A stretch of DNA of 64,000 bases, from positions 10,706,283-10,770,282 of the forward strand of contig OZ316892.1 of NCBI GenBank assembly GCA_973895155.1, given 5' to 3'. Origin of the DNA: Marsupella aquatica (Eukaryota > Plantae > Marchantiophyta). The position numbers were made by a program, and so were the translations under genes. Positions within the stretch are counted from its first letter, which is position 1, and every line of letters starts with the position of its first letter. The notes under the pieces were generated by a model. That model was not told where the DNA came from. It made no database searches and saw only the letters and a program-made list of their open reading frames with translations. Shown here piece after piece: positions 7,728-30,860 of the stretch.

Positions 7728-8644
7728 CACTAGAAGAAAACATGGCCCTTTATGACCAATTATCCAATGACCGAAATGAATAAATGACCAAAATTGGCAA
7801 TGACACAAAATGAATGACAGGAGAATGACTGTCCAAAATGACGGTCAATAGACTGAAATGACAAAATGATAAATTTTGCGTCATTTAGCCTAATGTCTAT
7901 AATGACACAATTAGTATAAAATGGTCAATTTAGACATACGTCCTAAATGACGCAACCAAGTACAACAATGATAAATCAGTGTTTAGCACCATTGTAGTCA
8001 CTTTGGACAACGGTCGTAAATGACCAACGCCTAGTTGGGTCATTTTGGACAACGGTGATAAATGACAAAAAACCTATTTTTGTCATTTTAACCAACGCTG
8101 CTAAATGACTAAATTTAGGGTCAATCTAAAAATCAAGATATCTCAGTGTTTACAACAACATATAATCATTATGCACTTATCTCATAAATGACTAAATCTA
8201 GGGTCAGTCTAAAAATCAAAATATATCAGTGTTTACAACAATATATAGTCATTACGGACGTTTGTATCATAAATGATTACTTGTAAAGTCAATCTAAAAA
8301 TTAGGATATATCAGTCTTTATATTAATATATAGTCATTACAAACTTGTGTCATAAATGACTACTTCTAGAGTCATTAAGGAATCAATGATATATCAGTGA
8401 TTTTTTAATTTTATTTTATTTTTAAATTTGAATTTTATTCCGCGTGAACCCCATGGATGAGGGGACCAAGCAGGCCAAACGGCAACAATCCCAAAAGGGC
8501 AGTGGGTACAAGCTCCAAGACCAAAGAGTCCAGTAAGGAGCATGATATCTTTCTAACACTAGGCTCTTGGCAGGCCAAAAGCACATATCTAAAAAACAAA
8601 CGTGAAGGGCAGGCCATCCAAAGTCCAGCAGAGGGACATTACTT

Positions 8645-9708
8645 TCATGAAGATTCAATACGTCTAATTCTACCACCTAAAATCTTGCTTCTTTCTCTAT
8701 CCAGCATAACAGTAGCACCCATCAGACGATCATGTTTCTTGCTTGTTCCAGATGTGACTGTCACCCCAGAAAGATGATCAAGCGTCCCAGAAATAATAGC
8801 TATTTGATCAAAGTTGCGTTTCGTGGTCTTTGTCAAGTCAAAGATCTGTCCATTCCGAGCAGTCCAGATATTCCAGAGGATTTGGTAGATTAAAAAGGCA
8901 CATAGTGTGCTCAGTGGGGACTTCACACGGCAAGACAGTAGGAGATCAAAAATGCTAAAGTCCTGGCCAATAATCTGTCCATTCAACCAGCCACTTGTCT
9001 CGCTCCAGCAGCTCTGTGCATGTCGGCAGTGAAAGAAAAGGTGTGGGATAGTCTCAATCACCCCCCGGCAGAGCTCACAGCAGCCATCAGACTTCAAAAT
9101 CCGCAAAGCCCTGGATCCGGAGAACAGGCCCTGGGCAAGAACACGCCATACAAAGGTTTTAGCCCTGGTGGACAGATCAGATTTCCAAGAAATCTGCCAG
9201 ACATCACTCCATTCTTTCTCTGAAAGCATGACATCCCAGATCCTGTTTAGCCGAACGTAATCAGATCCCTTAGTGCGGAGCATATCATAAATCCTATGAT
9301 TAGATAAAACAAATAGCTTGGGATGTGAAGCAAGATCAAGCCAACGCCATTGTCTGGCAGGGGAGTCCACGTTACTTCCCTGGAAGGTAGTCAAACGGAT
9401 TGTATCCAGAAGAGCAAAGCAAGTTCTCTTGAGATCCTCAGGGAGCCCACGAATGCGATGCATCTTATCATGTAAGTCCTTCCACTCGTGGACAGCAGGG
9501 GACCAAAAGTCACATACTTTCCTGATCCCCAGTTTCCCACAAATCTTAACAATGCTAGTTCTGATGTCCTCCTGCAAGTCGTAGTATCCATGTAAGCATC
9601 TAAGAAGGTCTTCGATCCCCCAATGACCGGGAATTGAGCCAGTGCCAGGGCAGAAGATCAGATTCCCTCTCACCTGCATCCAAGCACTCCAAATCTGTCC
9701 TGTGTACT
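8645..9708 (-). pseudogene. L1 ORF2 C-terminal part (zf-RVT region)
   Basis: W..SWKSDLSTRAKTFVWRVL...CELCRGVIETIPHLFFHC...W...IWTARNGQIF. In frame with the 26509-side part once the CACTA and one ACT copy are removed. Confidence 0.88.
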
Positions 9709-10565
9709 CACTAGAAGAATCCGAGGTGAACTGAGACCGCAATATATGACTCATTTTGGCTCATGTGACTTCATTGTGACTCAACGTGACTTGACCCACG
9801 CTGTGACCCTTGGAGTTGCAAAAGTTGAGACCAAAAAATGGAAGTCACTATTGATACTGGGCTTTGCAACTTGCTTGATACCCATTTGTGACTGATCTGT
9901 GACTTTATTGTGGAGTCTAGCCTTGTTTCAATGTGACTGCAATATGACTTCAGCGAGTCACATCGTAAGTCACATACATGACTTACTCGCATTCAACAAC
10001 GACTACCGTGTGACTATTTAGTGTCACAGGAGAGACCAATGGAGACCCTGGCCCGCGTCACACAACAGAACCATTTGGGACTCTATATACTCATGTTTAT
10101 AACTAATAAGGTTCACATGCAAGTTATAACCATGACTAATGAACACAGAGGGACAGTTCATAAGGAGAGAGAGAGCACTCGACATTACAATACATAGAAA
10201 CCTGATGTTCTAACTTTAGAAATATAACACATTGAATACAAGAATTGAACATAGCATGAATGACATCCACATGAAACAAAGCATCATATAAGCAGATCCT
10301 ACATAAAACATTCATAAGAATTAAACACAATCACAATCTTGCTAAAAAATGAAGATCATTTGAATTCCAATGGAATAGTTTACAATGTGATCAATGTAAT
10401 TTAGACAAAACAGGAACTCATAATTGATGACTGTAGGATGAGATAACTGAAAGCACGTGCATGATACTATGAATCTCCAAGAGGACATGATTCTTGTACT
10501 GCTTCTTGACATCTAAAATCTACATAACATGACTCACGCTACAAACAAATAATGGCATGACATTG

Positions 10566-13500
10566 TTATGGATCCTCTATGAACTTGCTTGGCCATAATA
10601 CCAAAGAACCTGCAGCATCTCCAAGTGTCTTTTGAGGAGGATCATCATTTGTGTTTGGAATGGGAAGGACAGCTTTAGGTTTCACTAGTAATGTGACTAA
10701 CACTACTGAATAACCTGGGGGAATCCTCTTGCCATGGAACGTTGTGGAACCAACCTGCACTCTGGCAAATCCTACTCGTGTTCCACTCTCATCAACAGCT
10801 AACAAGCCACTTTGTCCCTCAGCATTAGGTGCTTTCCCCACTTCCATCTTAGATCTTTCTGCCAGCACTGTTCTTGGAGGTTTGTATGAAACCTTTGACG
10901 TGGCTCTGCTCCCACCAGCAGACTTGCTTCGTGTGTGCATGCTTCCTCTCTTCACAGTAGTGAAGCTAGGCTCAGTAGGTTCCTCTGTTAGGACTGTCAT
11001 AGTAGCAGGTTCATCACCTGGGAGTGTCATACCAACTAACTCTTTGGTTGGATTTATCTCAACAAGAGGCACACCTGTCATTGAGAATGATACATTCTGC
11101 AAATCATTTATCTCTGCAATGGAGTCAAGATCTACATAGCATGAATCTGGCTCAATGGTATCATTGTCATGCTTGCTGATATCCTCATTTGCCCCAACAT
11201 TGATATCATCCACTCCCTTGCCAATGTCATCCTCATCCAAACATGGTTGACTGCCCTCTGTCAAACAAGTTGCTTGTACAGACTGCAACTTTGTTGCCTC
11301 TAAATTACAGCGAGTATTTGCCAGGTTCTCATACTTCTTCTCTGTAGCACCTGTCTTATTCTCTATGGACACAACAACCACAATATATGTTACTGAAAAT
11401 AACACATTCAACAAACAATGTCAATTCAAACTATACATTTAATAATCATATCCCACACAGTTGTAAAGGCCTTACCTTCAAGCCTACATGTCGTTGGCAT
11501 GCCAGAAGAGTGCATCGACTTTGCCACCTCAAGTGGTGATGGTGGAACTCCTGCAGAATTGGAATCAATTTTATCTCTCACCGACACAACAGCTTCCATT
11601 AATGTCTTGAAGTTCACATGGAACAAGTCAGTCAATGAATTCAAACGTTCATTGATCTCTGGAAGACATGTTTCGACAGCCTTCAAACGACTACTTATCT
11701 CTGTAAGTGAAGATCCACCTCCCTACATGACACAGGGGTATAGGTTCAATCACTCCATATGAAATGTTGGGCAATATATGCACAATCAATGTTATATACA
11801 GTGTACACCTGAAATTCAACGCAGGTCATTCAATTACCAATCAGAACTCATATAACTTACATGCTTGGAGGATTCAGATGCACCCTCTTGAGCCCGGGTG
11901 TTCACAATTTCAGCCCTCAACTCTTCTTTTGAAGGGCTTTGCCCCAATTGGGCTTTCTGCACATGCATGGCAAACACAAGTTATCGATCAATATTCAGGG
12001 AACGTACACTAAAAAACAAAGTTTACATGTATGGGTTTACACTAAAAAACAGTACATAGTGTAGCATAAATTACATAGCTAGGCCATTCATTCTTACCAA
12101 ACGTTTAGCTGTCGGTGCAATGCCGGTCCTTCCTGTCAGATTAGGGATCTGAACACTCAACCTGGCCTCGGTCATCTGTGAACTCTTCTTTTTTGAAGCA
12201 TCTGTTACAAAATAAGCTACTAACCTTGCCCACACTTTATCATCACAACTGGCTGGTGGAGGCATATCTGGCTTCTCCCCACCTTCCTTCCAAGCCTTAT
12301 GCATTCTCCACCTCTCTTGCTTGATAATTTTACCTGCTGTACTCTCTAGGCAACCTATGTCCATGCCATCATCACTGCCCACATAATTCCATTTGGCAGC
12401 AACATTTTCACATACAGTCTTCCAATCTTCCAATACTACTTCCATGTAGTACTGGGCGTTGTATTGGCCACCCCTTCATTCACCCTACCTGGGGTTCTGA
12501 AGCCAGCTGGGAAAATACAATGCCGTTCATGCTTGAGAACTACATATAGCAGAATGGATGACGGCAACATTCAATGCTTCACTTCAAGAAAAATTCTTCA
12601 AACATACATACCTGTAGCTCTGCCTGTAGATGCCTGTGCAGGGACTGCACTCTGAAATTGTTGCGACCCTAGACCACCTGTCCAGCCTAGTACAGGGGCC
12701 GGATGATGTCACTTTCTAGGTATGTGTGTGCAAACATATGTACTGAAAACTAAGTACAAACTGTAGGAAAACAACTGAACATTCACCGACATACCTGTCC
12801 CCCTTCCGTGCTGCATCTGCATAGGGGCATTAGTGAATACTTGAGTCGATGGTTCAACTGTCCAACCTGCACACATACATTTTCTATCATTATACATGTG
12901 CAGAGTCCCCCCCCACGTGAATGGACTCCACATATAATGAGTTCTTCCATTGCTGACAAGATCAGACATTACCTACTTGTAGGTACTGAATTTTGATATC
13001 CCTGCCAATTACCTTCACCACCTTCCCAACCTTGTTCATTCCACGACCCACCACCATCCTCCCAACCTGGTTCAACCCATGTCTGTCCTTGTGGACATTG
13101 GAACTGATCATTACTAGCATTTGCCCAATCAGGTTGGGCAGAATCTGCATGCAATGGCAGGTGGACAGAATTTCATGTTGTCTGAGTCCAATACATCCCA
13201 AACAATGTCAAAAATTGATATGCAGTCTGAAATTCAGGAGTGCCATGCCTTCACAAAGAACTGGCATATAGATATATACTCACATCCCCATGGTTGAGGT
13301 GGACGTCCATACCCACGAGATTGTGGGTTTGGACCTGCTCTGCCTCTACCACGGGCATAACCTAGAGCTTGCCCCCTGCCATAGTATTGGGCACTAGCCT
13401 GGGATCTACCACTACTACCACCTTGCCAACCTTGATCAGAGGTCAGCCCCCCCTGCTGGTATGGTGCATGCACAGGCTTCGAAGGCAAAACAGAACTGGC

Positions 13501-13900
13501 AGGACACTGCATCACATCACCAACTACAATGTCAGGAACTAAGCAAGGTACATATGTGTAGTACTGAACATATGAAACCTCTAAACAAGAGTTTTTAACT
13601 CAAAACCTTGTTGGGAAAACTACTTACATGTTTCTTTTGGGGCTGCTCTGCAATGTATTCATCTTCATAACCCCCATCCTCATCCATTTCCTCTGGAAAA
13701 TACTCATCATCTGCATCTTCTTGTCTAGTGTCTGCACCCACCTGTGCAGCATCAATGTCATCTCCACATTCTGCCATTGTAGGTACGACCTTCTTGCTCA
13801 ACCTGTCACTCCGACGCACAGGCCCAGAGATAGTGCTGGTCACCCTTCTTGGGTACTCCTTTTGTTTCTTTGAAAATGCTGTGGCTCTGCGACATTCCAA
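10566..13900 (-). CDS. CACTA TnpA-like accessory protein (multi-exon; boundaries approximate)
   Basis: The exon at 12071-12445 has the Ptta/En/Spm-like motif PPPASCDDKVWARLVAYF...SSQMTEAR...TGRTG. The last exon ends with a TNP1-like domain FHGKRIPPGYSVVLV...LPIP...TLGDAAGSLVLWP. Confidence 0.75.
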
Positions 13901-14261
13901 TATGAGAATACAGTCACAATTTCAGTGCTACATTGAACTATTCATGTCACACAAACTCAGCGGAGGGGTGTAGTTGAGAATCGTTCCCTTACAATTCAGC
14001 CACATCCTTTTCTAGATCCAGTTCTGCGATTTTGGCTTTCACGTATGCTCGTTGTTCCATAGCTTTCCTTTCATACTCACACATCTTTGTGTCACTGTGT
14101 TCCATCCTACTGGACCACAAAAACATGTCATCTATGGTCACCCCGTATAACACAATGCAACCACAATCACCAGGCATCCATCCATACATCTGTGTTGCTT
14201 CAGAATTACTTTATTACACATCCTTCCCCTCACTAATGTCCATGCAAACAATTCACATTAC

Positions 14262-17200
14262 TCATGGCACAGGCACACTGTTGGCATCTACATCTCTGAA
14301 TTCGCCTCCTTCAGCAAATGCATCTACCCTTGTCACAGGAATGAAGTCCCCGCTATCATGAACTACAGGCACTTGGTCTGAACGCCGACGATCAAAGGCA
14401 CTATGAGAGTGTAAATGAAACTCAAGGTTTGATCCTTCCATCCGACGTTGCCTGGCCTGTTTATGACACACTACACGCCAACCTGGGGAGTCTTCCACAT
14501 CCAGGAAGAAAGCTTGCTCCACCTGACTAGGAAACACAAATGGCTCAGACCATTCGGGCAATTTCCCTCTGAAATTGGCCAGCAAGAAACCGTCGTTGTC
14601 TCTCTTCATGGTAGCCCTGTTACCAAGCCAATCCTGCCGCACCCATGAACCTTTCATAAGAATCACAGGACTGGACACCGCCCCATAGTCCAGAGCCCAT
14701 ATGTCAACTAATTCTCCCACATATCCCATCTCCATCCAGGCCCTGTCGTGATTGTGGCTCTGTTGCTCAAATACAGTGATGAGCCCGCAGTCATTCGTCA
14801 CCCTGTAGGCACTGTCACCATCCTTCACTCGGAAGTGATTCCCATATGCTCTCATCCGTTTGTAAGTCTTCACTTTCAGGCTAGGGGCATTAGACAGTAG
14901 GTAAACATCTGCATCCATGTCTGGGTGGGTCTCGTGATGCTCTCTAATTGCCACTCTGATCCACTCCATGAAACCTGGAAAAGTTGTTCCTGCAGTGGGA
15001 TGGGCCGCCTTCAATGACTCATACTCCCTGAACGAACAACCACACAGCATTAGCTTGGGTAAACATGAACAGGCTGAAGGAGAAAACCACACGAACACAA
15101 CATTTAAGCTCATGAACTGGATTATAGCACATGTATGCACTCACTGTATCCAGGGTTCCATCACCGCAGTGTTGTGCAATACAAAGTCATGTGCCAAGTC
15201 TCTCATAGATATGGTCAGGTTCTTTGTGGTTGCAGCCCCTTCCAGTACTTCACCTATCACGCCTTCCTCCTCATCAGAATTCCACACCCTGGTCTTCACA
15301 TGCTCATATTGTGCTATGTATTCGGTCAGAAATCCCAGAGTCTCATCCTTGATGTAACCTTTAGCCATGCTTGCTTCAGGTTTGTAATATGTTCTCACGT
15401 GACCTTTGAGTAGCTTCATGTACCGTTCCAAAGGGTACAACCAACGAGCACTCACAGGCCCAAATTGGTGTAGCTCTTCCACAACATGGACAAGTAGGTG
15501 GGTCATGACATCAAAAAATGTGGGAGGAAAATAAATCTCCAGGTCACACAGCACCTGAGCGACATCTTCTGTCAGTTGTGGGAAGTGTGTTTCATCCCAA
15601 ACCTTCACACAAATACGACGAAACACATCACTGAGTCGCATGATCACAGTACGAATAGGCTTCTGCAACAGGCCCCTCAGGCATAAAGGCAACACCTGTT
15701 GCATCAACATATGGTAGTCATGGCTTTTCATACTACCAAGCTTTCTAGTCATGATATGCTTCTTGAAAGCACTGCCATAGTTTGAAGGAACCTTCAAAGA
15801 ACTCAACCTCTGCACAAATAGTTCCCACTCTGTGTCTGTCAGAACATAGGGCGCTTGGTACTTCAAGAGCACATCAGCTCTGTGGGCATGTGGCCTCAAC
15901 CAAAGATGGGGTTTCATTCCCCTCTGTTCAAGATCCAATCTCATTGAACCAGTGTCTTTCTCTCCACACAAGAATCTGAGTAGACTCTCACAAATATTCT
16001 TTTCAATGTGCATAACATCAATGTTATGTTTGCTTGGCTCAAACTCCTGCATCGTTGCAATGCAAAAGCGTCAGGAAATGCCTCAAGTTTAGTCTCTCTC
16101 TTCGAAATGAATGCACATGCTCTGAACCAAAACATGTATCCCAATTAGCATCAACTCCAAGAGGCTTACCCTCCAGTACTTGAGCTCCAAGTCCAATATG
16201 CTCAGTCTTTTTACACCATATCGCTTTATTGGATCACTCACTCCATCTTCCCTGCCCCCTCGTTTGATATAGTCATCCCTCAGTGCTCCCCACTGCCTGA
16301 TCTCCTCTTTGGTCACTCATGCCGGGGGTCCACGTTGCTCAATCTCATTGCCAAAGTGTGCAATCAGTGCCTGTCTTTCTCTGTAAGGGTGATCTGCCTT
16401 CAGAAAACGACGATGGCCCATGTATATCACTTTCTGCAGGGCTCTGGAGTACTCACTGGTGACATTGCGCCCACAGATAGTACAAGCACAATATCCTTTT
16501 GTTGTTTGGCCTGATATCATCCCATGGGCTGGGTAGTCAGCTATAGTCAGAATGACAATGGCTCTAAGGATGAATGGGTTTAACCTCCCAAGCCTCTGTA
16601 GGACATCATATGTGAGAACTCCTTCCTCCCAAAGCTTTCTCAATTCCTCCACTAGGGGAGCCAGAAACACATCTATGTTGGCAGATACAGCACTGTCTGG
16701 CCCTGGTATCAGTAGGACCATCAGAACAAAAAATCGCTTTGTAGTCATCCAAGGAGGAAGGTTATAATTCAAAATAGTTACAAGCCAGCACGAAAATTTG
16801 TTGTTCTTGTCTCCAAATGGGTTTACCCCATCCAATGACAGCCCAAGTCTGACATTCCTCGGCTCAGCAGCAAATTCAGGATACATCTCATCTATGAGTT
16901 TCCATTGCCTTGAATCTGCAGCATGTTGTTGTAGCCCATCATCACTTTTCTTGTCAGTTGCCCAAGTCATCATCTCCGAGATGGCACGGCTTCTGAACAT
17001 CCGCTGAAGTCTGGGAATGAGTGGAAAATGACGAAGTACCTTGGCGGGAACCATAGACTTTCCTGAGTTCCGATACCTGTGCTTCCCACACTTAGGGCAT
17101 GTCAACGATTCTTTATACTCCTTTCTGAAAAGAACATGCCCATCAGGACAGGCATGGATCGAATCATAGTTCAATCCAAGATTAGATATGCATCTTTTTG

Positions 17201-17993
17201 CCTCGTACATGTTCTTGGGCAAAATATTACCATCTGGTAGCACAGTTGTTCGCAAGAATGCCAACAACTCAGAAACCAAAACGTTGGGGACATTGTGGTT
17301 GCCGCAAATGTTCAGGAACATGATGACAAATCCCAGTTTAGAACATTTGCTACCGGGGTACAAAGACTTCCTGCCTTCCTGTATTTGCAGGGGAGAGCCA
17401 AACATCCCATCGTGCCCAGGGGTTTCCTGCCCTATCTCAAACTCATCAAGAGGCTCTTCGACAGGGGGCACACTTGCATCTGCAGCCGTATCCTCTTCGT
17501 TGTCCAGCCCATCATGAAATGCATCCAAGTCTTGGAAGATGTCTCTCACCATCTCTTCCACATGAATTCCTTCATCACGTGGTGCTGCCTGAGCACCATC
17601 CCGTTGGAGAGCTGACAACCCACAGAGACCAGCTACAACATTTTCAAATGCACCAGGCAGAACCTCACTTGCCCGTCTTGCAGCACTGGCAGCATCAAAT
17701 TCTAACCTCCACTCCTCGTCGGAAGAATCTTCCTCTGCAGGATCATTCCAAACTCGATGTCGTGGATCTCTTCCATGAACCGCGATATGCCGCCAAACCT
17801 CATTCAGACCCCTGGTACGGGATCCTTGGCAGATTGCACAAGGACATCTCATCCTACTGGCTCCTGAAAGTCTGGTTCGTAACCTTTCACGCTGCCAAAG
17901 CTTATTATCATGGCGTGATATCCTTGTGGGATGATGCAAAGGCAGTGCCTGTGCCCTGGGCTGGGTCTGGGGAGGGTGGTGACCAGGGTGCAT
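14262..17993 (-). CDS. CACTA TnpD-like transposase (Transposase_21/Tnp2 + DUF4218 + DUF4216), one in-frame stop
   Basis: Motifs RCPCAIC, IHACPDG..CPKCG..RY, FPLIPRLQRMF, FAAEPRNVRLGLSLDGVNPFG, DVMHIEKN, MKSHDYH, FFDVMTHLLVH, EPFVFPSQVEQAFF. Predicted exons 16170-17993, 15145-16046, 14262-15027. TGA at 16317-16319 (likely CGA>TGA). Confidence 0.93.
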
Positions 17994-18426
17994 TGTAACA
18001 GGCTGGGAGCTCTACAGTCATGGACAGCAGTGAACAAGGATGCCTAATGGTGGTATTTGTGTTCCATATATCCCTAACTGTATCTGCCAAAAGAGTTAAC
18101 ATAACGTGTACTAAATTCTCACAAACCCTAAACCACCCCAAAAGAAAAAAACAGGTTCGCAAGTAGTGTACCTATTGTCAAGTGAATGACACAAAATTCC
18201 TAAATGTTGGAGGGTGTCACCACCTCCTCCGCTGTCCTCAAATGTACCGCCTCTGCATGTACGTTTACAGTGACACCCCCAGGCAGCAGGAAACAACAAT
18301 CCGCCAACAGTAAAATAAGCCCAACTGCCACCAACCATAACAAGGTACATTAGTTCAAAGATCACATTTATTTCAATGATCTGATTTATACAAAAAAACT
18401 TGTGTCCAAACTGATGCTACTACTCC

Positions 18427-19299
18427 TCACTCTGATTCATAATCGCTAATGACCCATTCCTCACTTGTTGTCTCATAGTCCTCTCTGTAAGGATCCTGAC
18501 CCTTCCGTGGCCAGGCCTCAAAAAGATCATAGTCCATTGGGTTTTGACGCTTCCCAGCTGCTACTGATTCCACAAGCCAAGCATATGAAACCACAAACAC
18601 ATTATGGGACATGACATAAAAGCGAATGTCTCCCTTCCCAAACTTGCGGCAGGCTTTGGGATATGACTTAGTAATGACATGAGTGGTGTCCTCTGTTATA
18701 TTCTCCTCCACTATCCCACCTAGGTCAAGCACTGTGGACTTGTACACTTTGCACTTAACCTCTCCAATTCCCGCCTCCACAAATACCATGCTCAGCCCTT
18801 TCAGAATGGGGGTTGGTTGCTTCGTCTCCTCAGCCAACATACTCTTCAGCCTTGTAGAGCTCTGTCCTTTGTTGAGTACAGGTCCATATTGGAGATCAGC
18901 AAGCCGTGCCTTTGCTTCCCAGACTTCTTGTTCAGCCCAAGCTGATGCAGTAGCTTCTTCATCCTCCCACAACTCATATTGCTCAGTATCCTGTACAATC
19001 TTATGTGCTACGGAATCTGTGATCCAAGAGGCCTCAACTACTTTTAGGCCTTGCTTAGTAATTGCAGAATTCATGTAGGACCATGACCACTTCTTTATCA
19101 CTGATAGCCATGTCCCTGCAACAACATGTGTAGTCTCTGGAGTGATGTCCTGAACTACAGTGCCATGGAGCTCAGAGAATCGTTTCTGTACAGTTGGCCA
19201 ATGCACTTTGGTCAACCCATGCTGGCCATGGACCAAAATCGCTCTGACCCCTGTAAACACTGCTGGGTGGTCACACTTTCTACGTTTACCAGACTCCAT
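18427..19299 (-). CDS. Transposon-borne tandem-BRCT protein; repeats resemble the plant DNA polymerase lambda BRCT
   Basis: Two repeats: FTGVRAILV...HGTVVQDITPETTHVV...VVEASWITDS...YEL and LKGLSMVFVEAG...GGIVEENITEDTTHVI...KFGK...VVSYAWLVESVAAG...YDL. Intact and intronless, ATG at 19299. Confidence 0.82.
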   Translation of the reverse strand: MESGKRRKCDHPAVFTGVRAILVHGQHGLTKVHWPTVQKRFSELHGTVVQDITPETTHVVAGTWLSVIKKWSWSYMNSAITKQGLKVVEASWITDSVAHKIVQDTEQYELWEDEEATASAWAEQEVWEAKARLADLQYGPVLNKGQSSTRLKSMLAEETKQPTPILKGLSMVFVEAGIGEVKCKVYKSTVLDLGGIVEENITEDTTHVITKSYPKACRKFGKGDIRFYVMSHNVFVVSYAWLVESVAAGKRQNPMDYDLFEAWPRKGQDPYREDYETTSEEWVISDYESE

Positions 19300-19891
19300 G
19301 TACACACACCCTACGTGATGACAGTGAATTTTGGAAGAATGGGTTCACCTGACAATACAAGGACAACAAAATTCCTACTTTTTGAGTTGATCTGGCCCAC
19401 TGGTGCTCAGGTCCGATTTTGATAGGTACAAGGGATATGTGAACAATACGTACTAGGCACCTGCACGGATGCAGGACATTGTTTGAATATATACTACAAA
19501 ATCCATATCCGTGGTGAAATGAAGTGCAACCAACTTGTCATGGCACATACATATTTTGTTGTAAAGGAGGATACATTCAATGACAAACTTATAGGGCAAT
19601 TTGATTAATTGCATGCCTGATAATTTATACGCTTACAACTTAGAAGTCCTGTTTTAATTTAGCAGTCTGATGAAAGTGTTTATGAAAATGACCACTCAGC
19701 CTAAATACTTCCAAGAAGGCTTGTAAGGATAAGTTTGTATAGGCATGTACCCAGCCACTGACACCATAGCACAAGATAAGTGCTGCCTATATAAACTCGC
19801 CTACCCAACTCCTTTTCAAAATTGGAATCTCTGCAATCTCAAAAAATAGTACATCCACATCAGATGCACTGTGCATGTACAATGTTCAGCT

Positions 19892-20572
19892 TCACAGCCA
19901 AGATATGTGATCTCTCATAGGAGTGCGCGAGGTAGGATCAATGGCATGGCGATGACAATAAAATATCCATCGATCAACACCATGTGTAGAGTGATCATAG
20001 ATTTCTCTGTCACAAGCATAACCCTCTGCTTGATGATCTTTCAGGCAATGATAGTGCCACATAGTGGGACACCTAGCACAGTGGACTATGTCAGTCCAGT
20101 AGTCATCATCATGCTCACCACATGCCTTGCACCTATGAAGTGGGCAAGCTGTGGCATGAGCAGGCAAACACTCAAAACAGAAAAATCTCACACAAAAACG
20201 GTCTGGACATTTCCTAACATTTGCTGCAGCATCAACAGAGCCCTCATAGGACCCCAACTTCCCACACTGTGCACACTTAGCCTGCTTCTCCAAACAATCA
20301 GTGCACATCCAGTCTCCCTGGTGTGTTGACGGGAGGCCCACCCCTGGACAGTTGTTTTCTGCAGCATGGTCAGACTCCAGGTTGAGGTGGAAATGCCTCA
20401 TGCAAGGGCCCTCACAAATGACCAGGCCCCCACCATCGTCACAAATGGCACAACAATGAGCTGCCTTCTGGAAAATCTGACTTGTAGAGAAGTTAGTAGC
20501 ATCTGCCCCAAGTACACCTGTGTTTCTCACCTCTGTCACACGCTTTTTGGCTTGAATTTTAGGCCGTGCCAT
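19892..20572 (-). CDS. Transposon-borne stand-alone EDM2-like composite PHD-finger protein (226 aa)
   Basis: CAICDDGG.LVICEGPCMRHFH...WMCTDC...KCAQCGKLGS...CPLHRCKAC...CARCPTMWHYHCL...IFYCHRHAIDPTSRTPMRDHISW follows the EDM2 PHD cassette (CAICDNGG..CCEG.C.RSFH...CPLHKC...CRRCPKSYH..CL...IYCxxHEID....TPxRDH). Intact ORF. Confidence 0.88.
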   Translation of the reverse strand: MARPKIQAKKRVTEVRNTGVLGADATNFSTSQIFQKAAHCCAICDDGGGLVICEGPCMRHFHLNLESDHAAENNCPGVGLPSTHQGDWMCTDCLEKQAKCAQCGKLGSYEGSVDAAANVRKCPDRFCVRFFCFECLPAHATACPLHRCKACGEHDDDYWTDIVHCARCPTMWHYHCLKDHQAEGYACDREIYDHSTHGVDRWIFYCHRHAIDPTSRTPMRDHISWL

Positions 20573-20582
20573 GCCTGCGCAT

Positions 20583-20727
20583 GAGATAGACTCTACAATT
20601 TAGCAGACTGCACAGAAAGTAAAATATATTTAGCATTTAAGGTACAAAGGCATTTAGATAGACTCTACAATTTAGCAGACTGCACAGAAAGTAAAATATA
20701 TTTAGCATTTAAGGTACAAAGGCATTT
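20583..20727 (+). repeat. Tandem duplication of ~72 bp in the intron upstream of the PHD ORF
   Basis: gatagactctacaatttagcagactgcacagaaagtaaaatatatttagcatttaaggtacaaagg occurs twice. Confidence 0.85.
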
Positions 20728-21342
20728 GCTACTGCAATGAATTGGAATGGCCACACAAGGATGCAGAGCACACATACTTTTGGTATGTTGAGCCCACACA
20801 CAAAACTGATCCCCTAATACAATTTCTCCACCAACACCTCAATTTTAATTGTGGCTATGATTCACCAAAGGAGATCTGCAACAACATTTCATGCATTTGA
20901 ATCACATACAATAGTCATGACATGTAAAACAGGCATTCTTCGAAGAGGATTGGTATGAAGCAGTGTCATAAGGGTTGAAATTTATACATCCTAAATAGGT
21001 TATGATAGTGGTTGAGACAAATAAGTGAGGCATAAATCATTTTGCATATTATCACATGGCCCATTAATTCATTCAACGTTGCAATGTTCACCAGGTTAAA
21101 GCAGTCATGAAAGCAGTCTTTCAATAGAGACTGTTATGCGAGTTTGCTAGCCTCTTAAATTAGGATATTTTGCTTAGTGCAGGCATAATAGGATATAAGT
21201 TATGTACTGTTGACCCTAAACCCTGGACCCAAAATTGCTCATACATCAAAATTTTAAGTAAATATCCTCTGTGTTGAAGTCAGAGTGTTAAGCTATAGGT
21301 CAATGGTATCTGGTTTGTGCATGCGGTGTGACAAGTGGTCCT

Positions 21343-21792
21343 CTAGAGCATGTGATCCAAACATGTGTAGACACCAAAGTCACCGGTGGTGGGGTCTGGG
21401 AGGGCAGGACAAGTGACATCACCAGGCACACTGCAGGATGGCGAGTGGTTCCAGATGATACATTGTGCTCTGTGCAAAAATCGGCATCCAAGAGAACGGT
21501 CATCCAATTCTGGGCCAGAAGCCCTATAGGCAGGACAGTCATATTGGCAACTGTGTACACACCCTTGGCACCTAATTTGTGGCGGGTCATGTACAAGAGA
21601 CACAAATACCAAGGATGTCGGGAAGGGTACTGAAGCAGGTAGAGGCCGGCTGTAGTTGTTCCTGGAAACAACAGGGTACTCAAAGTACCATGCAGACTGG
21701 GCTGGAAGGATCCCAAGTCTGACATACTCAAGGCGCAACATCTCTGCCTTGCGTGCAAGTCGCACATGTTCAGCGTTGCGGGTCCTCACCAT
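21343..21792 (-). CDS. Cys/His-rich putative zinc-binding protein, 149 aa (CACTA cargo)
   Basis: Basic N-terminus MVRTRN..RLARK, then CQGC..SCQYDC...GCRFLHRAQC...C...C...CLDH. Co-oriented with the other cargo ORFs and preceded by a splice acceptor near 21921. Confidence 0.5.
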   Translation of the reverse strand: MVRTRNAEHVRLARKAEMLRLEYVRLGILPAQSAWYFEYPVVSRNNYSRPLPASVPFPTSLVFVSLVHDPPQIRCQGCVHSCQYDCPAYRASGPELDDRSLGCRFLHRAQCIIWNHSPSCSVPGDVTCPALPDPTTGDFGVYTCLDHML

Positions 21793-22800
21793 AAGTGTTG
21801 CTTTCGTTGTGATGTCCTCTGTTCACGTCCTTTGATGAGCAAGGTGAGCAAGAGGTCGACTTGCCTCGCCAACAGCAACCACCTAAACTAATCAGTTCCC
21901 ACTCATTGTCTTGGTTCCAACTACAGGTCATAGTATACACATAGCATGAAACGTGCATAGTACATATTTGATTCTGAGTTTATGAGTTTCCTAAGACAAA
22001 GAGCTTGGTGATAAACCCATATTCTCGACGGACATGTATATCAATCATATTAAACTCCTGTTTTTTCATCCAGAAAGACCGAAAGTCTCACCTTGCAGGT
22101 TGCAGCAGAGAGAAAATTCACTGGTTGTCGTGTTGTGCAAGTGAACCTCCACTGATGCCCCGGTGTAGCCCCTCAGATGCAGGTGACACTTACCAACTCC
22201 CAAGTTGCCTGGTCTAACAGAAAATGTTTATATCTTCAGAACTTTATAGAGCAAGTACATGATCACATACTTCTGGATCTATTCATATTTGGAACTCTTG
22301 CCAACTACAACTCCCATTATGCACAAGCTCACATCAACAGAGAAAGATACAGAATGCATACTTACTATGGCTCTAAGCACCTTCACTACCTTGTTGAACC
22401 CAGTCCTGAAGTCTTTTCAGCGTGTTTGTTGTGCTGTCTCCTTTGGCACCCAACACCTTAGTCCTTGATGTAACAGAATGCGATTTTACAAGTTAGATGC
22501 TTTGGAACCTTCTATGGTCTTAGCTGAATTGATGTCATCGTAAGTGGTGAAAGACAAGGAAGACGAAAACTGGTTGAAGAGCTGTGGACAACACACTAGC
22601 ATGAAGTGCTTCAACCAATCCACTGCCAAACGGAACTCTTACACAGTCACATTCTTTCAGTAAACAGAAACTCAGTCAAACTTCATAATCAAAGTACAGA
22701 CTCTGAAGGACCAAAGGAGGATGTTGTGAGTTTCTCTGTTGTTTAATGTGTTACCCTTCTAGTTTCGAAGTTAGCAAATGCTGAATAATGTGTCTACCAG

Positions 22801-23140
22801 ATCTTCGAAAAGAAGCCCACCACAATTAAGAACTTCGGTATCTGGGTGAGGTATCAGAGTTGTACAGGTTATCCCAACATGTACAAGAAATATCGTGATA
22901 CCACATTAAACAACCACACAGCAGATGTATGATGAGATGGCTTCTTGTCATAGAGTTCGGTTCCCTTGCATCCAGATCATCAAGACTACGACAGTCCCTG
23001 TCTCTCTGTGCAAGCGAGAAAGTACCAAGCAGTTCCATGATTCAAAGATCAAGTTCCCCTTGACGTACCGCAAGATTCAACCTCCATCGCGAAAGCTAAA
23101 GACGACTTACAAGGCCACCAAGCCCAACACATTTGTTTGA
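22801..23140 (+). pseudogene. RPL18A: Captured last exon of 60S ribosomal protein L18a (eL20), frameshifted
   Basis: After ...ctaccag|: [37 protein letters not shown], then a frameshift (~22915), then [22 protein letters not shown]...[18 protein letters not shown]...[19 protein letters not shown]. Confidence 0.92.
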
Positions 23141-26100
23141 GTAGTGCGGGTGCAGGTTCCCAATTTTGAAACAATTTGGCTCATTTTATGTCCCGAGGGA
23201 CTCCAGGAGTTTATGTATTGAGTTTCTAGGTCAAGATGCTTAATATAAGGAAATTCAATTATCACTTCGTTCCCAACTTCTATTAATTGAATATACACAA
23301 GCTGGAAGCAAGAAGACAAGCCACAATCTAGCATCTTAGCCAAACACAATCGTCCCGACAAAGCAAAACTCAGCTGGACAGAAGTCACTCGGATCCACAA
23401 AAAATTGAAGATTCACCTCCAAGCCGGAGGCCGATCACTTCAGTACAGCAGCTTCTGGATGGAACAAACTCTGCTCAGCCCCACATAAACACAAATGTTA
23501 AGGCTCCAAGTCAGAGCTCACAAACAGAAACTCAGATAAATAACATTCAAAATCTGTCCAGGTTTGTGCAAAGTGTACATATTCATTCTTCTGGAATGAA
23601 CACGCAATCCATAAGAACGAAAGTAGGAAGGCAAGCGCACGGGCCACCGAGAAAAGTAAAGGATGCATGTGTTAGTGGGGAGGGATCTTAGCAAAAACAG
23701 GGGAAAGCAAGGGAACTTGCTGCTAAAATCAGCTGAACGATTGCACGGTTCCTATAAATTTAGTGGACCTTAAGGCCGTCTGTTCACCCCCCCACCCCAC
23801 CGCCAGAGCACGGGGCACAAGGCATGTTCTGATATAGGGAGGAGCGAAACAGTCATGTCAAGCAAGAAGTGTGGAGAGACCAATCAGTAAGCAAAAATAG
23901 GGGAGGACATACATACATCAGCAGCAGCAGGAAACAAGAAAGATGATTTCGGGTGGCATCTTAGGGTCGGGGACACCACTGCAACACCGGGACTTAGGAT
24001 ATGACTAAATGTAAGCTACACAGTCCTCCGTTCTCTTCAACAATTACCTTAAACAGTGAAGTAATCTAAATGGATGTTGATCAAAATCAATTGCAACTAC
24101 GCGGCCCTTGGTTCTGCTGCGGCTACAGCAGCCAAGAGAACAGCTCAGAGCCTTGATTGAAGACTGTGCTCTCAAACTAAGCTAAAGACAAAGAGATATA
24201 GAGAGAGACAAAAAAAAGTTGACAGGAGTGCAAAGCGAGAACCCACTCCCGTTCTTTCAACACCCTAAACCCCGCTGCCTGACTTAAGTTGCATGGCGAC
24301 AGAAGCAGTCATTGAAAACTTACCTTGTGATGACAAAAACGCTCTGGGATGGGCTGCTACTCCCAGGACTATCCCACACTCTTAGCGCCCCGTTGCTATT
24401 GAGCCACACTTCAGTTCAGCCACGCACGCTCAATCTTTGTCATTCAGCTAAGTTTAGCTCCGCAGGGCCTGGACTCACTCTCATCCAATTTCAGTTGATC
24501 AGTATTGCAGCTCTCTGCTCCCAAGAATAGGTCCTTGCGTTTGTTGAGCGCCTCTATAGACTCACTTACCTCCAAAAACACTGAAAGTTTTTATCTGCAT
24601 TACAATGAGCTCTAAAGACCAAAAACATTCCCGCCTAAACTGAAATAGAGTCCGCAACTACAAGCTTTGCAGCTCAACTCTCTGAGCTCTCCCAGCTCAA
24701 AGGTATCAGCATGTTGTACCCACACTTGATCGAACGCTCTTCCAATGCTCGCTAGGTTGATCTTCCAATGCTCACGGTAAGCTATGGACACCAAGCTCAG
24801 AAGACCGTGGGGAGACAACTAAACTTGCAGCGACGTAGGACCGCAAAGATAGGGATTGCAGCTTTACCTGGGGCGATGCAGCACCAAGCCGTGCTGCGTA
24901 GCAATCCGCAGCAAGAATAGTCCAAATGCAAGCCAAGTGACAAGCTCCTGGTTCTCGATCCCAAGTTGCAACTGAATATCGAATTCACTCTCCTAGCTTC
25001 AAGGAATGAGTGTCTATTGAATGTTGAATTAAATTCTCGCAAACTCTTCACAGTGCTTCCCGTAGTGCCTATTGTCGATGCAACACACAATCACTCTTGA
25101 TGCCTACTACTCACATTCCCTTTTCTCAATGCAACACACACTCGCTCTTCTCGCCTCCTACTACTCACATTGCCCAACGATCAACGAAAGCAGAAGGACA
25201 GGACAGGGAGAACCCTTTCGCAGCTCAGGACGGCAAGGCTAGGAGTGTATACACATCGGGCCGCAATAAGGTCCAACCTCAACTTCAAAAAGTGCAACGC
25301 CAAAACTGGAAGCCGGGTCCAATAACAGTCGTTAGTAGGATGTCGTAAAACCCCTAAAGTTGCAGCATTGCCATACTCTACTTCCTCACCCGGTAGCGCT
25401 AGGCATTCGACCTCTCTCTTCCAAAGACCTCGATGACCTCCCACCAGCTCAATGACGATGGCACGCAAAGCTTCCGTTTGGCTTGCAAACCCTTGAGGCA
25501 AACCAACTCCCTTGGAGACCCTTCCCAAAACCCTGTGCGGGAGAGAAATGCCGAACGTGAAGACCACTCACTTGTCTTCCCATTGAAGTGGAGACATTAG
25601 TTCACAAAAGAGACACAAAAGTCTATGATTTGCCTAATTTGTTTTTTCCTTTGAAACCAAAGGACTTACGCAATAGTTATATGTGGGGTGAGTGGTTAGT
25701 CACAACTTTGAACCACCCCCTTTGGTGAAAATGTGGCCAAATATTCAGGTATGACCCCACATTACCATTATGAAGTACACTTTTTTAGGGTTGGGGTAGT
25801 GAAGAGCTGATCATATATATTTAAGTTGGACATTTAAGTTGGACTTATATTGAACATGAAGCATGCATTGGTTGTCATATATGAAGGGGGCCGGGGAAAC
25901 ATGGTGGTTTCTGGGGCATGGCAATAAGTAAACCCAACCTACATATGTGAGGCTGAAATTGGGTGATAATTAAGCACGCCTTTGGCACGACCAGAAGACG
26001 TCGATAGAAAAATTAGAGATTGACTACAAAAAGCATTAAGTTAGGTTAGCAAGCTTTGACAAATCCTTTTTGTAGTTGAATGGGGCTGGGGCGCGCTTCA

Positions 26101-26508
26101 TGGTGTCTAGATGGGGGTAGGAATAATGATGGAATACTCAGTAATGGCATGGTTTAAAATGGTATGACCAAATTAGAATTAAATCTATGTGGAATGACAT
26201 ATGGTGTATCCAAAATCATATGTATTGGGTTAGATCTCATACTTTAAGGTTGAAGGGCTCAAATGTTGTGCTCTCATAAGTTGTACTCTAATGTAGAGTC
26301 GCTTGTATGACTTCAACCTAATTGCCTTAACTGAGTTATAGTTACAACTTCCCTAAAAGTTGTAAACATGACTCCTCAAAACTTCACCAAAACTCAGTCA
26401 AGAAGGTGTGACTAACATGACACCAATAACCTTGGAGTCGCTGTTTCATGAAGGTCTCGGACAAGTCACATTCTTTGTGGTCTCAGAAAGGGTGGGTTTC
26501 TTCTAGTG

Positions 26509-29374
26509 ACTATAAACGGCCAAAAGAACGAGGTGTGCTCAAAAGAATCTTGTCCTGCATGGAGTAGCGGTTTCTACGGACAGTCTTAAAGTTTCTCCAT
26601 TTTGTCAGCAGTAAATTCTCAGCATACATTAGAGCCCACTCCGACCCTGGATGATCCAGTGCTCCAGTAAACCACCTGCTCAAGAGGGCATCAGAATAAC
26701 TGCGAAATTCTTTAAAGCCCAGACCACCTTCCATCTTGGGTCGACATAACTTGGACCAGGCCACCAGGGGGATCCGCTTCCCTCCCTGTTTATTCATCCC
26801 CCATAGAAAGACCCGACTCAAGGCTATCAGTCTCTTAGCCAAGGAACTAGGTGACCTGAGAAACATCATGTGGTAGACCGGGATAGCCTGTAGGACATGC
26901 TTGACCAGTAGCACCCGACCAGTGAATGAAAGAAACCGAGTAGACCAAGATGAGAGCCGGGCACTGATCCTGTCAAGACAAAAACCATGCAATTGTGCCT
27001 CAGAGAGATCGTAACCGAAGGGTGCCCCGAGGTATTTTTGGACAACTCCTTCCGCACTGATCAGGCAGCCAGTCTCCCTAAGCCAACCAGGGATGTCATC
27101 TAATGCAATAGGCACCACCACCGATTTGCTTAGATTTAATTTAGCACCCATCGCACGCTCGTAGCAATTAATAGCACATCTAGCCTGTTCAAAAGACTCC
27201 GCTGTGGCAGGAATGAACATCCCAAGGTCATCAGCAAAGAGTCTAAAGCAGATAGTCAAAACTGAAGACACCTGTATACCCTGTAGTCGACCTGCCTCAA
27301 TTTCAGCCTTGAAAAAATCCATGAGCGGTTGAGTAGATAGAACAAAAAGTAAAGGGGAAAGTGGGCAGCCTTGTCGTACCCCTCTGCACATCCTCACATC
27401 AGCGGTCTAGAGGCCATTAACCAGAGCCCTGGAGGTAGCACCACCAATCAACGATTTGACAAGAAAAATAAAGTGGGATCCTATCCCTAACAAGTACATC
27501 GATTCCCAGATGTAGGAATGATCTACTCTGTCAAAAGCTTTTTCAAAGTCCAATTTCAAGAAAAGAGATGGCGTCCTGGTACAATTAATCCAATCATTGG
27601 CCAGCCAGGTGAGGGAGATGTTTTCCAGTATGTGCCTACCAGGGATAAAGCCAGTCTGTTGCGGGCTAATCATACTGGGAAGTAGTATTTTTAACCTGAG
27701 GGCCAACAGTTTAGCAATGAGTTTATAGGTAGTGGTAAGCATGGTCAAAGCTCTCCAATCTCCTAAACGACATTTATCCGTTTTCTTCGGAATAAACCGA
27801 ATCACACCATCACGGATACAGGAGGCAAGTTGTCCTGTCCTCCAGAAATCAGAAATCATGTCATGAAAATCGGCTTCCATGAAGTTCCAGCAAGCTCTGA
27901 ACACTTCTGCCGTCATTCCGTCGATTCCAGGAGCCTTGTCATTGGGTAGCATCATTAGTGTCTCCTGTATCTCTCTCGTAGAGGGAAGCTCTTCCAGCAT
28001 TTTGATTTCTGCCGACGAAGGGGCAAAATGAGTGGTTTGGGTCAGTTCTCTACGAGCTGCATACATATCTCTGAGGGCTTCAGCAGTCCGCACAGGTGGT
28101 GAGTAAAGGGCCTCACAGAAGCTCTGTACTTCTTGAACCACAAGTTTTTCATCCCGTATTTCGCGTCCTCCTTCCACCACCAAGTACTCCATTCTTTCTC
28201 GCTGCCTCTTTGCTTTCACAGTTGAGAAGTAGAATTTAGAAGGCTCATCCCCCTGCCCAAGCCATTTAATTCGAGAGAGTCTGCGACAGTGATGCGCTTC
28301 TTCTAGCTCTAAAGAACGTACACTGTCCTCAGTGTTTGCAAAATCCCTGATGCTATCGGGGGAGTAATCTTCCATGATTGTAATCTTCAGTAGGCAAAGT
28401 TTCTCTTTCAATAGTAACATCTCCTGGTCGCGTGGAAGGGGAGAAGCCTGTAGGGTCATATAGCATTGCCTTATCCTTTGAAAAGCCTGTGCAAATCTCA
28501 TGTGAGGGTCAGAAGGGGGATCCGTCATTCCCGTCCAAGCGGCTTCCAACTTCTCGAGATTATCTGTAGTCCTGAGTACAACTGGGTTAGCTTTGAAATA
28601 GGTGGCGCGACGCTGGTTGGTTTCAGACAGGAGTGGCGGGTTGAGGCGGAAGGATATCAGTATGGGATCATGGTCAGAAAGGGCCGAAGTTCCATCATGT
28701 TTGAGTTCCAATAGTTCCGCAGTCCATCTGCCTTTTTCGCTGAAGTAAAAGCGATCTAATCAGGATTGAACCAGCACTCCATTGCGAATTCGTCGCCAGG
28801 TGAATTTGGATCCATTTACGTGACCAAGGATGGAGATAGCGTCCTGCAAATCCAATCTGAGCTTAAGAAACCTCCAGAACTCTAGCTCTCTGCCGCGGAT
28901 CAGTGGAGAGGGACCCGTTGAGTCTACTCTGGATTCCGTCATATTAAAATCGCCACAGAGTACCCATCTGTCATGGGGAAGCTCATTCTTCAGATCATTC
29001 CACAACAATGTTCTATCGCCTTCTGAGTTAGGTGCGTACACACTGATGAGTCCAAAGTTCCCATCAGCATGCTCCAACTGGACCCAGACTGCTCTCCCTC
29101 TGTCAAGCTGTCCCGATCCAAGGACCTTGAAGGAGGGGTTGAGAAGAATAGCAGTTCCACCTCGACCTTCATCAGGGGCAGAGTAAAAGAATTGATAATT
29201 GGGTAAAATAGTTTTAAGGGCGAGATCGAGGCGGAAGCCATCAGCTTTTACTTCCTGAAGCGCGAGGGCATCTAGGGGAGGTCTCAAAGTGGAGGTCCAT
29301 TGCAGCACAACATTTTTGCGATCAGGATCACAAAGCCCACACACATTCCAGGATGCAAATGTAAACGTTGCCAT
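26509..29374 (-). pseudogene. L1 ORF2 N-terminal part: APE endonuclease + reverse transcriptase
   Basis: Motifs SWNVCGL, ALQEVK, SVYAPN, GDFN, S*LDRFY, SDHDPI, KAPGIDG, LKLDFEKAFDRV, RQGCPLSPLLF, FADD, KYLGAP. One reading frame with stops at 28760, 27407 and 26510. Confidence 0.93.
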
Positions 29375-30672
29375 GATAGATTTCTTCCTTCGGCAGAACG
29401 TCTTGCCGAACTCAGAGAAAGTCCATCGTAGGAACTAGAGAGTCGGACTACTGGCAGCGCCTGTAGTCACCAAATGCAGAATGTCGGGAGAGCCTTTCAA
29501 TGCCGAGCCAGAGGGGCTGGCCGAAGCGTCCATCTCAGACGGGGGAATCCTAGATCCCTTTTTCAGATCCTTAGCCTGCTTTCGACTGGGCGTCACCCAG
29601 CCTTCAGCGTCCTGCACATTGGAACCAGGAGCGAAGTGTAAGGATTTTTGATTTTTAGCTTTCTTCTTATCTTTCTCTTTTTTCTTGTCATCGGGTGGTG
29701 ATCTTCTGGCCAATTTCCTCGCTCGATCCTTTTTAATTGCAGTACGAGAAATGAAACCTTCATATTCAGACAGCTCCATGTCTGAGGCAATCTCCGAGGC
29801 AGAGAGTTCCTCCTCAACCTCTTCCATGTTATCCGGGGTGCCCTCAATTAGAGAGGCTGGCGCCAACATTTCAGCCTGTCCCAGAGGTAGACCAGATACC
29901 GGTGAGTTTTTGCCAGGGATGAATAAACCAGTCGAGGAGGGAGTCGTAGCTGAGGTCCGCTGCTGTAAATCCTGGATAACCTTAGGAATAGTATTTGAGT
30001 CGGAGAGGATATGCATCGCAGAGGTATCCAATCCTAACCTCTCAGCGGACTCATCAATGGCCCGATCCATCACCACCAGCAGATCCTCAGCAGCATGATC
30101 CTGGGGATTTCCAAAAAGAGCTCCATCACTCGCAGATGGCAGAGCTCCCGCACCAGGAACAAAAGCAGGATCTTCTCCCAGGGCAGCAATGGCGAGTCCA
30201 GCATGAACCTCCGTAGTCGGGACAGCAACCACCGGTGCTTCGGCCCCAGCAAAATCCGGGGGGATCGATGTAGCATCCGTGGGGGGGCGTTCGTCTGGTG
30301 CAACCTCCTCATAGAGTCTACAGTCTCGTGCCAGATGTCCTTTCTTGTTGCAACGAAAGCAATGGAAAGGGATATTCTTTAAAATGACCGGTTGCCAGAT
30401 AGAGAGCCCTTCCTGAAAGCGAACCTCTACACTCAAGGGCAACTCACGTTGCGTGTCCCATAGGATGCAGGCCCAATCATGGGGGTAAGAACTAAGCTCG
30501 TCGCCTTGAATATAATGTAAGTGTGACAGGGCCGCAAACCCGGTAGTAACTTAGTGATGACTTATAATTGCATATATAAGTAGAAAGACAAGTAGGTGTA
30601 GTAAAAGTGTTTAGATTTTCAAATGTTCAAATTTTTTTATTTTTGTTAGTTCTAATAAATGGATGCGACAAC

Positions 30673-30860
30673 CGGAGCCCGCGAGCCGTGGGGCGCGAGA
30701 CGGAGGGCCGCCCCGCGAGTAGGCCCAGCCCCGAAAGGGTCTGCCGGGGCGTAAGCGAGGGGCAGCCGGGGAGGAGGAGCCCGCGAGCCGTGGGGTGTGA
30801 GACGGAGGGCCGCCCCGCGAGTAGGCAGTGCCCCGAAAGGGTCTGCTGGGGCGTAAGCGA
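30673..30860 (+). repeat. ~102-bp GC-rich tandem duplication within the solo LTR
   Basis: ggagcccgcgagccgtgggg.g.gagacggagggccgccccgcgagtagg...ggggcgtaagcgagg occurs twice. Confidence 0.85.

Follow-up and report, generated by a model that had tools for sequence, protein, structure and literature searches.

Stand-alone PHD and BRCT genes in a liverwort CACTA transposon, with signs of selection on three accessory reading frames

Described relatives and the Marsupella element

EnSpm/CACTA transposons that carry accessory genes are already known. We describe an element of this kind from the liverwort Marsupella aquatica, located at 9709-26508 of a 64,000-nucleotide stretch (contig OZ316892.1, positions 10,706,283 to 10,770,282) that is called the window below. 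In this 16.8-kb CACTA element, three open reading frames (ORFs) lie upstream of the transposase gene TnpD and a TnpA-like gene and encode a stand-alone PHD cassette of the EDM2 type, a protein with two BRCT domains and a small Cys/His protein. The three genes are probably selected accessories of the transposon. The fuller reading, namely that they are selected as proteins and likely serve the element, with the PHD protein as a chromatin adaptor or decoy and the BRCT protein as a link to repair, is given a probability of roughly 0.55.

Arabidopsis EN/SPM2, 5, 6 and 9 (PMC13547354) resemble the present element in their CACTA ends, 3-bp target-site duplication (TSD), subterminal repeats and head-to-tail order of a TnpD (TAD, Transposase_21, DUF4218, DUF4216) followed by a TnpA-like gene. 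In contrast to them, the Marsupella element adds three whole genes upstream on the same strand, and the main text of that paper mentions neither PHD nor BRCT. Angiosperm CACTA types 1-4 (PMC8978399) share the four ORF1 domains, Transposase_24 in ORF2 and captures located 5' of ORF1; however, the additional domains there, Peptidase_C48 or Transposase_24, belong to ORF2 and the captures are short fragments, whereas the present element has three separate genes with selection signals.

The red-algal Plavaka, an EnSpm element, likewise combines a transposase with three accessory genes (PAG1-3), one of them of unknown function, for which an action on chromatin was proposed (bioRxiv 10.1101/2025.02.11.637652). 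The PAGs are enzymes (methylase-SET, 2OG oxygenase), while the present cargo is non-catalytic (PHD, BRCT) and its carrier, from a land plant, is a true CACTA with TnpA and TnpD. Fungal EnSpm elements bearing TET/JBP also have a chromatin-acting accessory gene, but again an enzyme (PMC12730594). VANDAL/VANC and the Kaonashi Ulp1 Mutator-like elements (MULEs) are plant DNA transposons of a different superfamily with accessory genes, one of which has a host-derived domain, that are tied to silencing escape (PMC13317346, PMC6446971). Anti-silencing was shown for VANC, whereas we infer it for the present element, in which neither a VANC nor a Ulp1 domain was found and the Cys/His ORF is without a family match. 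The animal MULE relative Rehavkus contains a PHD finger, but one fused to the transposase (PMC6446971).

No CACTA with an EDM2-type PHD or BRCT gene was found in the full-text literature, a scope outside which lie supplements, Repbase reports and most subscription journals. The first-pass annotation of this locus had stated that no described CACTA was known to have such a combination; this stands in the sense that none was found, and has to be narrowed since chromatin-related accessory genes of EnSpm elements are in print (Plavaka PAG1-3, TET/JBP). New is the PHD and BRCT cargo, for which the mechanism set out below is a putative one.

The element itself is a genuine CACTA/EnSpm transposon, with CACTA terminal inverted repeats (TIRs), a 3-bp TSD, subterminal repeats, TnpD and a TnpA-like gene. 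Its 11-bp TIRs are perfect, with arms that reach 38 nt at 74%, and the two ends form the sole CACT[AG] pair with a TIR of at least 9 bp plus a TSD among all such pairs in the whole window. GTGAC/TGACT repeats are crowded at the ends when compared with the interior (30-36 in 15.5 kb); TGACT occurs 13 times in the left-hand 402 bp, 5 times in the right-hand 219 bp and 36 times inside. In-silico excision of the element plus one TSD makes ORF2 of the target long interspersed nuclear element (LINE) continuous over 1329 codons. The original claim of a TIR- and TSD-bounded 16.8-kb CACTA is confirmed by the ends, the ACT duplication and both genes, together with the restored LINE frame. Within the 64-kb window there is no second copy of the element. 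The present copy is damaged, and the lesions noted at first are real: a premature TGA in TnpD, three internal stops in the reconstructed LINE ORF2 (one of them at the insertion site), and a frameshift in a captured RPL18a exon.

Selection on the upstream reading frames

Each of the BRCT, PHD and Cys/His ORFs is uninterrupted from ATG to stop; they are whole, evenly spaced and co-oriented with TnpD and TnpA. Their earlier description as three intact intronless ORFs holds for the open frames, with "intronless" being valid for the coding part only. The main argument of the first-pass annotation was that this cargo is open while the transposase is broken. It does no better than chance: TnpA and TnpD have 2 lesions in ~1900 codons, and at this rate 665 codons stay lesion-free with a probability of 0.50, or 0.36 when the LINE is added. 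Openness therefore fails as an argument, and intactness was rejected as a sign of selection. Acceptor-like AG dinucleotides just 5' of the start codons were likewise rejected as evidence of a shared leader, as they are common by chance. Selection on the three ORFs is backed instead by their homologues and by a codon-position CpG test.

Full-length stand-alone homologues were obtained by BLAST for the PHD ORF at 81, 74, 53, 37 and 37% identity (5 of 81 candidates), for the BRCT ORF at 60 and 55% (2 of 1171) and for the Cys/His ORF at 56 and 54% (2 of 13). The counted homologues agree with their ORF in start, end and length. Taken overall, identity spans 37-81% for PHD, 54-60% for BRCT and 55-58% for Cys/His. 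All of the homologues are unnamed Logan proteins, and neither NCBI nor UniRef has a record for any of the 12 family clusters looked up. We compared these identities with a neutral simulation of 300 runs per identity level in which only substitutions occur. The BRCT frame stayed open in 0 of 300 runs at 60% and again at 54%, and the PHD frame in 0 of 300 at 53%; ~2% of runs kept the Cys/His frame open. The PHD protein retains 34 of 44 Cys, Trp and His residues at 52% identity, where the neutral maximum is 0.66, and the fraction of conservative changes in the BRCT protein (0.41 and 0.37) is slightly above the neutral 95th percentile of 0.36.

The CpG test is free of the bias that comes with called ORFs because it is computed inside the window. 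At codon positions 1-2, 2-3 and 3-1, the observed/expected CpG ratios are 0.68, 0.20 and 0.11 for the three ORFs pooled, and 0.67, 0.20 and 0.31 for TnpD. Taken singly, the accessory ORFs have ratios at positions 1-2 and 3-1 of 0.83/0.11, 0.50/0.07 and 0.73/0.15 (one-sided P of 0.007, 0.03 and 0.03). CpG has thus been kept at positions where its loss changes the amino acid and lost at silent ones, which demonstrates that coding constraint once acted on these frames in methylated DNA.

Several observations weigh against selection on the three genes or against a service to the element. The homologue library consists of called ORFs only, which favours open survivors, so that the simulation figures overstate the case. 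The conservative-change fraction of the Cys/His protein is within the neutral range, and the retention of Cys, Trp and His is neutral for both the BRCT (13-14 of 23) and the Cys/His protein (11 of 17). Three-way identity only slightly exceeds the equal-rate expectation (0.43 versus 0.41 for BRCT, 0.48 versus 0.44 for Cys/His), and site-specific conservation is not strong in either protein. No correction was applied to the CpG P values, and the 5' part of the LINE, which is dead, gives the same CpG pattern; because of this the test speaks of past constraint and not of present function. The linkage of the three genes to a CACTA rests on one copy, and the element also carries a plainly passive capture, the RPL18a exon. 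Overall, the evidence of selection is strong for PHD, good for BRCT and moderate for Cys/His.

The RPL18a exon bears on the explanation that the three ORFs are captures of the Pack-CACTA type as well, i.e., recent copies of small lineage-specific host genes on which selection acted in the host and which have no role for the element. CACTAs do capture gene fragments 5' of ORF1, which matches the position of the three ORFs (PMC8978399), the RPL18a exon is a capture of such kind, and the intactness of the ORFs is not significant. However, the three ORFs have less CpG at silent sites (0.11) than TnpD has (0.31), and the RPL18a stretch has 0.66 overall; the low value suggests long residence of the ORFs in methylated DNA. 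Moreover, the RPL18a piece is a fragment on the opposite strand and beyond the three ORFs, with Pfam matching only its second part past the frame change, whereas the ORFs are whole, co-oriented and regularly placed. The lack of NCBI or UniRef records for the family clusters and the frameshifted appearance of 6 of 21 PHD family proteins also disfavour recent host copies, and we regard this explanation as unlikely. Among 90 additional short frames in 19340-26508, RPL18a provides the sole Pfam match.

The encoded proteins and their possible roles

The PHD protein consists of the cassette alone, with no RFD and no long C-terminal part, while named EDM2 proteins have ~1250 residues and a DNMT1-RFD. 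It has an NSD-like array of PHD fingers with a C-terminal extension of the EDM2 type; its Pfam matches (PHD-1st_NSD, PHD_NSD, PHDvar_NSD) are all below cut-off. A profile search over 1.84 billion representatives gave 561 matches, of which 150 were listed, with a profile built from family members and hence favouring their rank. Among those listed, stand-alone proteins of ~220 residues rank highest, and the remainder are mostly long proteins that include, among 10 looked up, named EDM2 proteins from Neltuma and Mangifera as well as proteins from Marchantia, Riccia and Calypogeia. Named EDM2 matches at E 7.6e-31 over positions 33-215, and the family is 30-32% identical to the named EDM2 and liverwort proteins over ~185 residues.

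In a quick tree of 155 of the 162 rows (7 short-match rows omitted), 14 stand-alone rows fall in one starred clade. In a careful tree of 41 hand-chosen rows, with an outgroup label assigned by us from Pfam matches, 11 stand-alone rows form a clade (100/99, stem 1.98) inside the EDM2-like group. The assignment to the EDM2 type made at first pass is borne out by this placement and by named EDM2 among the profile matches. A donor lineage for the cassette was dropped, since the sister lineage is not resolved in the 41-row tree. Five other short EDM2-cassette proteins (P0039, P0040, P0046, P0050, P0055) lie outside the present family in both trees; their placement suggests that the cassette may have become stand-alone more than once.

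Host EDM2 and NSD PHD I-III contain the same zinc-finger cassette of ~185 residues (PMC7529245, PMC3632883, PMC11724302). Compared with them, the present protein stands alone at ~220 residues, without RFD or C-terminal region, its PHD2 is ~20 residues shorter, and its family has lost an acidic patch and changed a His ligand to Cys. With 22 rows assigned to the family from their rank, their place in the tree and visual inspection, the PHD2 change from His to Cys is present in 15 of 15 scorable family rows versus 2 of 135 scorable rows among 140 others. The acidic residue just before PHD1 occurs in 0 of 18 scorable family rows versus 127 of 133 scorable others, which counts against a canonical reader of the H3 tail. 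In NSD2 PHDV, the acidic residues D1240/E1241 bind unmodified H3K4 (PMC11724302), and canonical reading of the H3 tail is doubtful here because the acidic patch is lost. The earlier label of a histone-mark reader is therefore weakened to an EDM2-type cassette whose reading function is doubtful, and an adaptor or decoy would fit equally well.

The AlphaFold model of the protein has a predicted local distance difference test (pLDDT) score of 84 and a predicted template modelling score of 0.78, with the N-tail unfolded. Fold searches returned PHD-type domains only, the best being NSD2 PHDV-C5HCH (Z 5.3, root-mean-square deviation 2.6, 75 aligned). A basic start M-[AT]-R plus a basic stretch is found at or near the N-terminus in 10 of 22 family rows. 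This N-tail may imitate the H3 tail or may simply serve as a nuclear signal, and some host proteins begin similarly. The perfect 72-bp tandem duplication ends 12 bases before the PHD ATG and, being perfect, is a recent local event.

The PHD family comprises 21 proteins, of which 8 are full, 7 partial and 6 break off into unrelated sequence; such a mixture is expected of decaying repeated copies. Its extent raises the alternative that the accessory genes are mobile, each one selected and transposon-borne but moving independently among families, with the trio being a local combination. The PHD set is deeper and larger (21 proteins, to 37% identity) than those of BRCT and Cys/His (2 clusters each), and exchange of accessory genes among superfamilies was described, with fungal TET/JBP and red-algal PAG as models (PMC12730594, bioRxiv 10.1101/2025.02.11.637652). 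However, this depth came from a sensitive profile search run for PHD alone, and the same word-based search finds relatives at 53-60% for all three ORFs. We consider independent movement somewhat unlikely.

The BRCT ORF matches PF00533 (E 2.1e-12) in two stretches, and its halves align with each other (pair E 2e-11), so that the description as a tandem BRCT protein is upheld. Its PDB profile matches are weak and generic (Rtt107 E 0.001, BRCA1 0.003, ligase IV 0.005), and Pol lambda is absent from the 34 PDB rows at E up to 1. Atlas matches are generic and under 0.9. A likeness to plant Pol lambda is presumed; an origin from Pol lambda or from NHEJ-type BRCTs, and the NHEJ link put forward at first pass, are candidate readings on which these matches do not decide.

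For the Cys/His protein, no match was obtained in Pfam, PDB, fold searches or Atlas, and it belongs to no known family. Its model, made from 3 sequences, has a pLDDT of 59; with a best E of 0.31 in Foldseek and a best Z of 3.9 in VIA, the fold searches give no basis for calling the fold new or known. The protein is likely a small zinc-binding partner. The absence of matches and the low pLDDT would also suit an ORF that is not a gene but merely an open stretch of conserved internal DNA, in which case the cargo would be two genes. A second frame is open across the same stretch, and an ATG ORF of 149 codons arises in 3.6% of random 8.5-kb strands. Yet both homologues have the same first five residues as the ORF and 4-5 gaps each, all in frame, and the CpG test favours the Cys/His frame (P 0.03) and not the overlapping alternative (P 0.91). 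We consider a non-genic stretch quite unlikely.

In the host, EDM2 binds chromatin that carries H3K9me2, where it suppresses premature polyadenylation (PMC7529245), and it affects the silencing of some transposons (PMC3632883). The PHD protein, with RFD and C-terminus gone and no enzyme, could bind chromatin or EDM2 partners, and as an adaptor or decoy it might allow full-length transposase transcripts from silenced copies. Relief of premature polyadenylation would be useful because a methylated transposon with a 3-exon and a 10-exon gene would need it. The double-BRCT protein, in turn, may link transposition breaks to host repair. A role of the PHD protein in the EDM2 pathway is a tentative proposal that we hold with limited confidence. 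We infer that transposons also carry the homologues, that the three genes belong together as a module and are expressed, and that both proteins have these functions.

A more far-reaching version is that of an old land-plant CACTA lineage with a conserved, non-enzymatic kit of three genes. Its EDM2 cassette would have been hijacked and converted from a reader of histones into a decoy or adaptor, with the acidic patch lost and a basic M-A-R-P/T-K N-tail as possible H3-tail mimic, turning host heterochromatic read-through to transposon use; the BRCT adaptor would manage break repair, with a new zinc-binding partner beside it. We consider this version unlikely. Scans for related loci confirmed 0 of 172 (BRCT alignment) and 0 of 118 (PHD alignment) stretches in metagenomes, 0 of 42 and 0 of 3 in viruses, and 0 of 32 and 0 of 20 in prokaryotic genomes; these are not plant genomes and provide no evidence of absence.

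The cassette might also act in targeting rather than anti-silencing, with the PHD protein tethering the transposase complex to chromatin of a certain state, so that insertion is steered into other repeats. The present copy is inserted in a LINE that itself adjoins another CACTA end, and PHD I-III of NSD2, the same cassette type by sequence match, contributes to bringing NSD2 to chromatin (PMC11724302). A single insertion within a window rich in repeats is uninformative on bias, however, and we consider targeting unlikely.

Features of the window and implications

The features of the element and its insertion site are collected in Table 1. TnpD has three GT-AG exons with 1163 codons and its single premature TGA at 16317-16319; Pfam finds TAD, Transposase_21, DUF4218 and DUF4216, and the C(2)C and H(3-4)H motifs are present. 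A stop at 15141 and stops at exon junctions were rejected as TnpD lesions, being located in introns. The TnpA-like gene has a weak Transposase_24 match (E 2.7e-5, 24.8 bits), under the curated cut-off of 28.7, and its break, absent from the first-pass annotation, is a frameshift or a splice site. Its C-terminus (10566-10800) is compact and beta-rich-looking, with no Pfam match. EN/SPM3 TnpA has a C-terminal beta-barrel described as confined to flowering plants (PMC13547354).

Table 1. Features of the CACTA element and of the LINE into which it is inserted (positions in the window)
Feature	Position	Strand	Basis
Target LINE ORF2, 3' part, zf-RVT	8645..9705	-	Pfam, frame reconstruction
Left target-site duplication ACT	9706..9708	.	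flank comparison
Left TIR CACTAGAAGAA, imperfect arm reaching 9742	9709..9719	+	end-pair scan
Subterminal repeats GTGAC/TGACT	9720..10110	.	repeat count
TnpA-like gene, 10-exon model, ~815 codons, frame break near 12440	10566..14105	-	Pfam + exon model
TnpD transposase, 3 exons 17993-16170, 16046-15145, 15027-14262	14262..17993	-	Pfam + exon model
Accessory ORF of 290 aa with two BRCT domains, 24% identity between the halves	18427..19299	-	Pfam, half-vs-half alignment
Accessory ORF, stand-alone EDM2-type PHD cassette, 226 aa	19892..20572	-	Pfam, profile search, tree
Perfect 2 x 72-bp tandem duplication upstream of PHD start codon	20584..20727	.	repeat scan
Accessory ORF, Cys/His/Pro protein, 149 aa, no family match	21343..21792	-	ORF call, homologues, CpG test
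Last exon of host RPL18a, captured together with its acceptor, frameshift near 22910	22801..23140	+	Pfam, frame check
Right TIR, reverse complement of CACTAGAAGAA	26498..26508	-	end-pair scan
Right target-site duplication ACT	26509..26511	.	flank comparison
Target LINE ORF2, 5' part, endonuclease + reverse transcriptase	26512..29434	-	Pfam, frame reconstruction

The stop of LINE ORF2 at the insertion site overlaps the TSD (26509-26511) and was already there in the empty site. A second CACTA, which shares the TIR (CACTAGAAGAAA), is represented at 7728-8440 by its left end, where subterminal ATGAC repeats are dense (22 in 673 bp); this end stops where the LINE 3' end starts, and a matching right end is absent from the window. 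The layout makes it likely that a CACTA was followed by the LINE and then by the present CACTA. A stretch of ~4 kb with higher GC (30550-34590) splits the zf-CCHC part of LINE ORF1 (29438-30550) from its DUF4283 part (34591-35571) and is likely another insertion; it contains a 401-residue ORF at 31544-32749 on the forward strand that is coiled-coil-like and has no clear Pfam match. Elsewhere, the window contains a Copia-type gag-pol ORF with 1398 open codons (51841-56037) and a degenerate tandem array with units of ~20-40 bp (6500-7030).

Among plant DNA transposons, VANC is almost the only anti-silencing protein to have been tested. If the proposed role is true, a CACTA with an EDM2-type cassette of its own would represent a second anti-silencing route, one that works via the way the host reads across heterochromatic transposon DNA, and the BRCT accessory gene would make self-steered break repair by cut-and-paste elements testable. 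The 226-residue PHD protein is a small, naturally occurring variant of the EDM2 cassette minus the acidic patch, useful for finding out to what the cassette binds.

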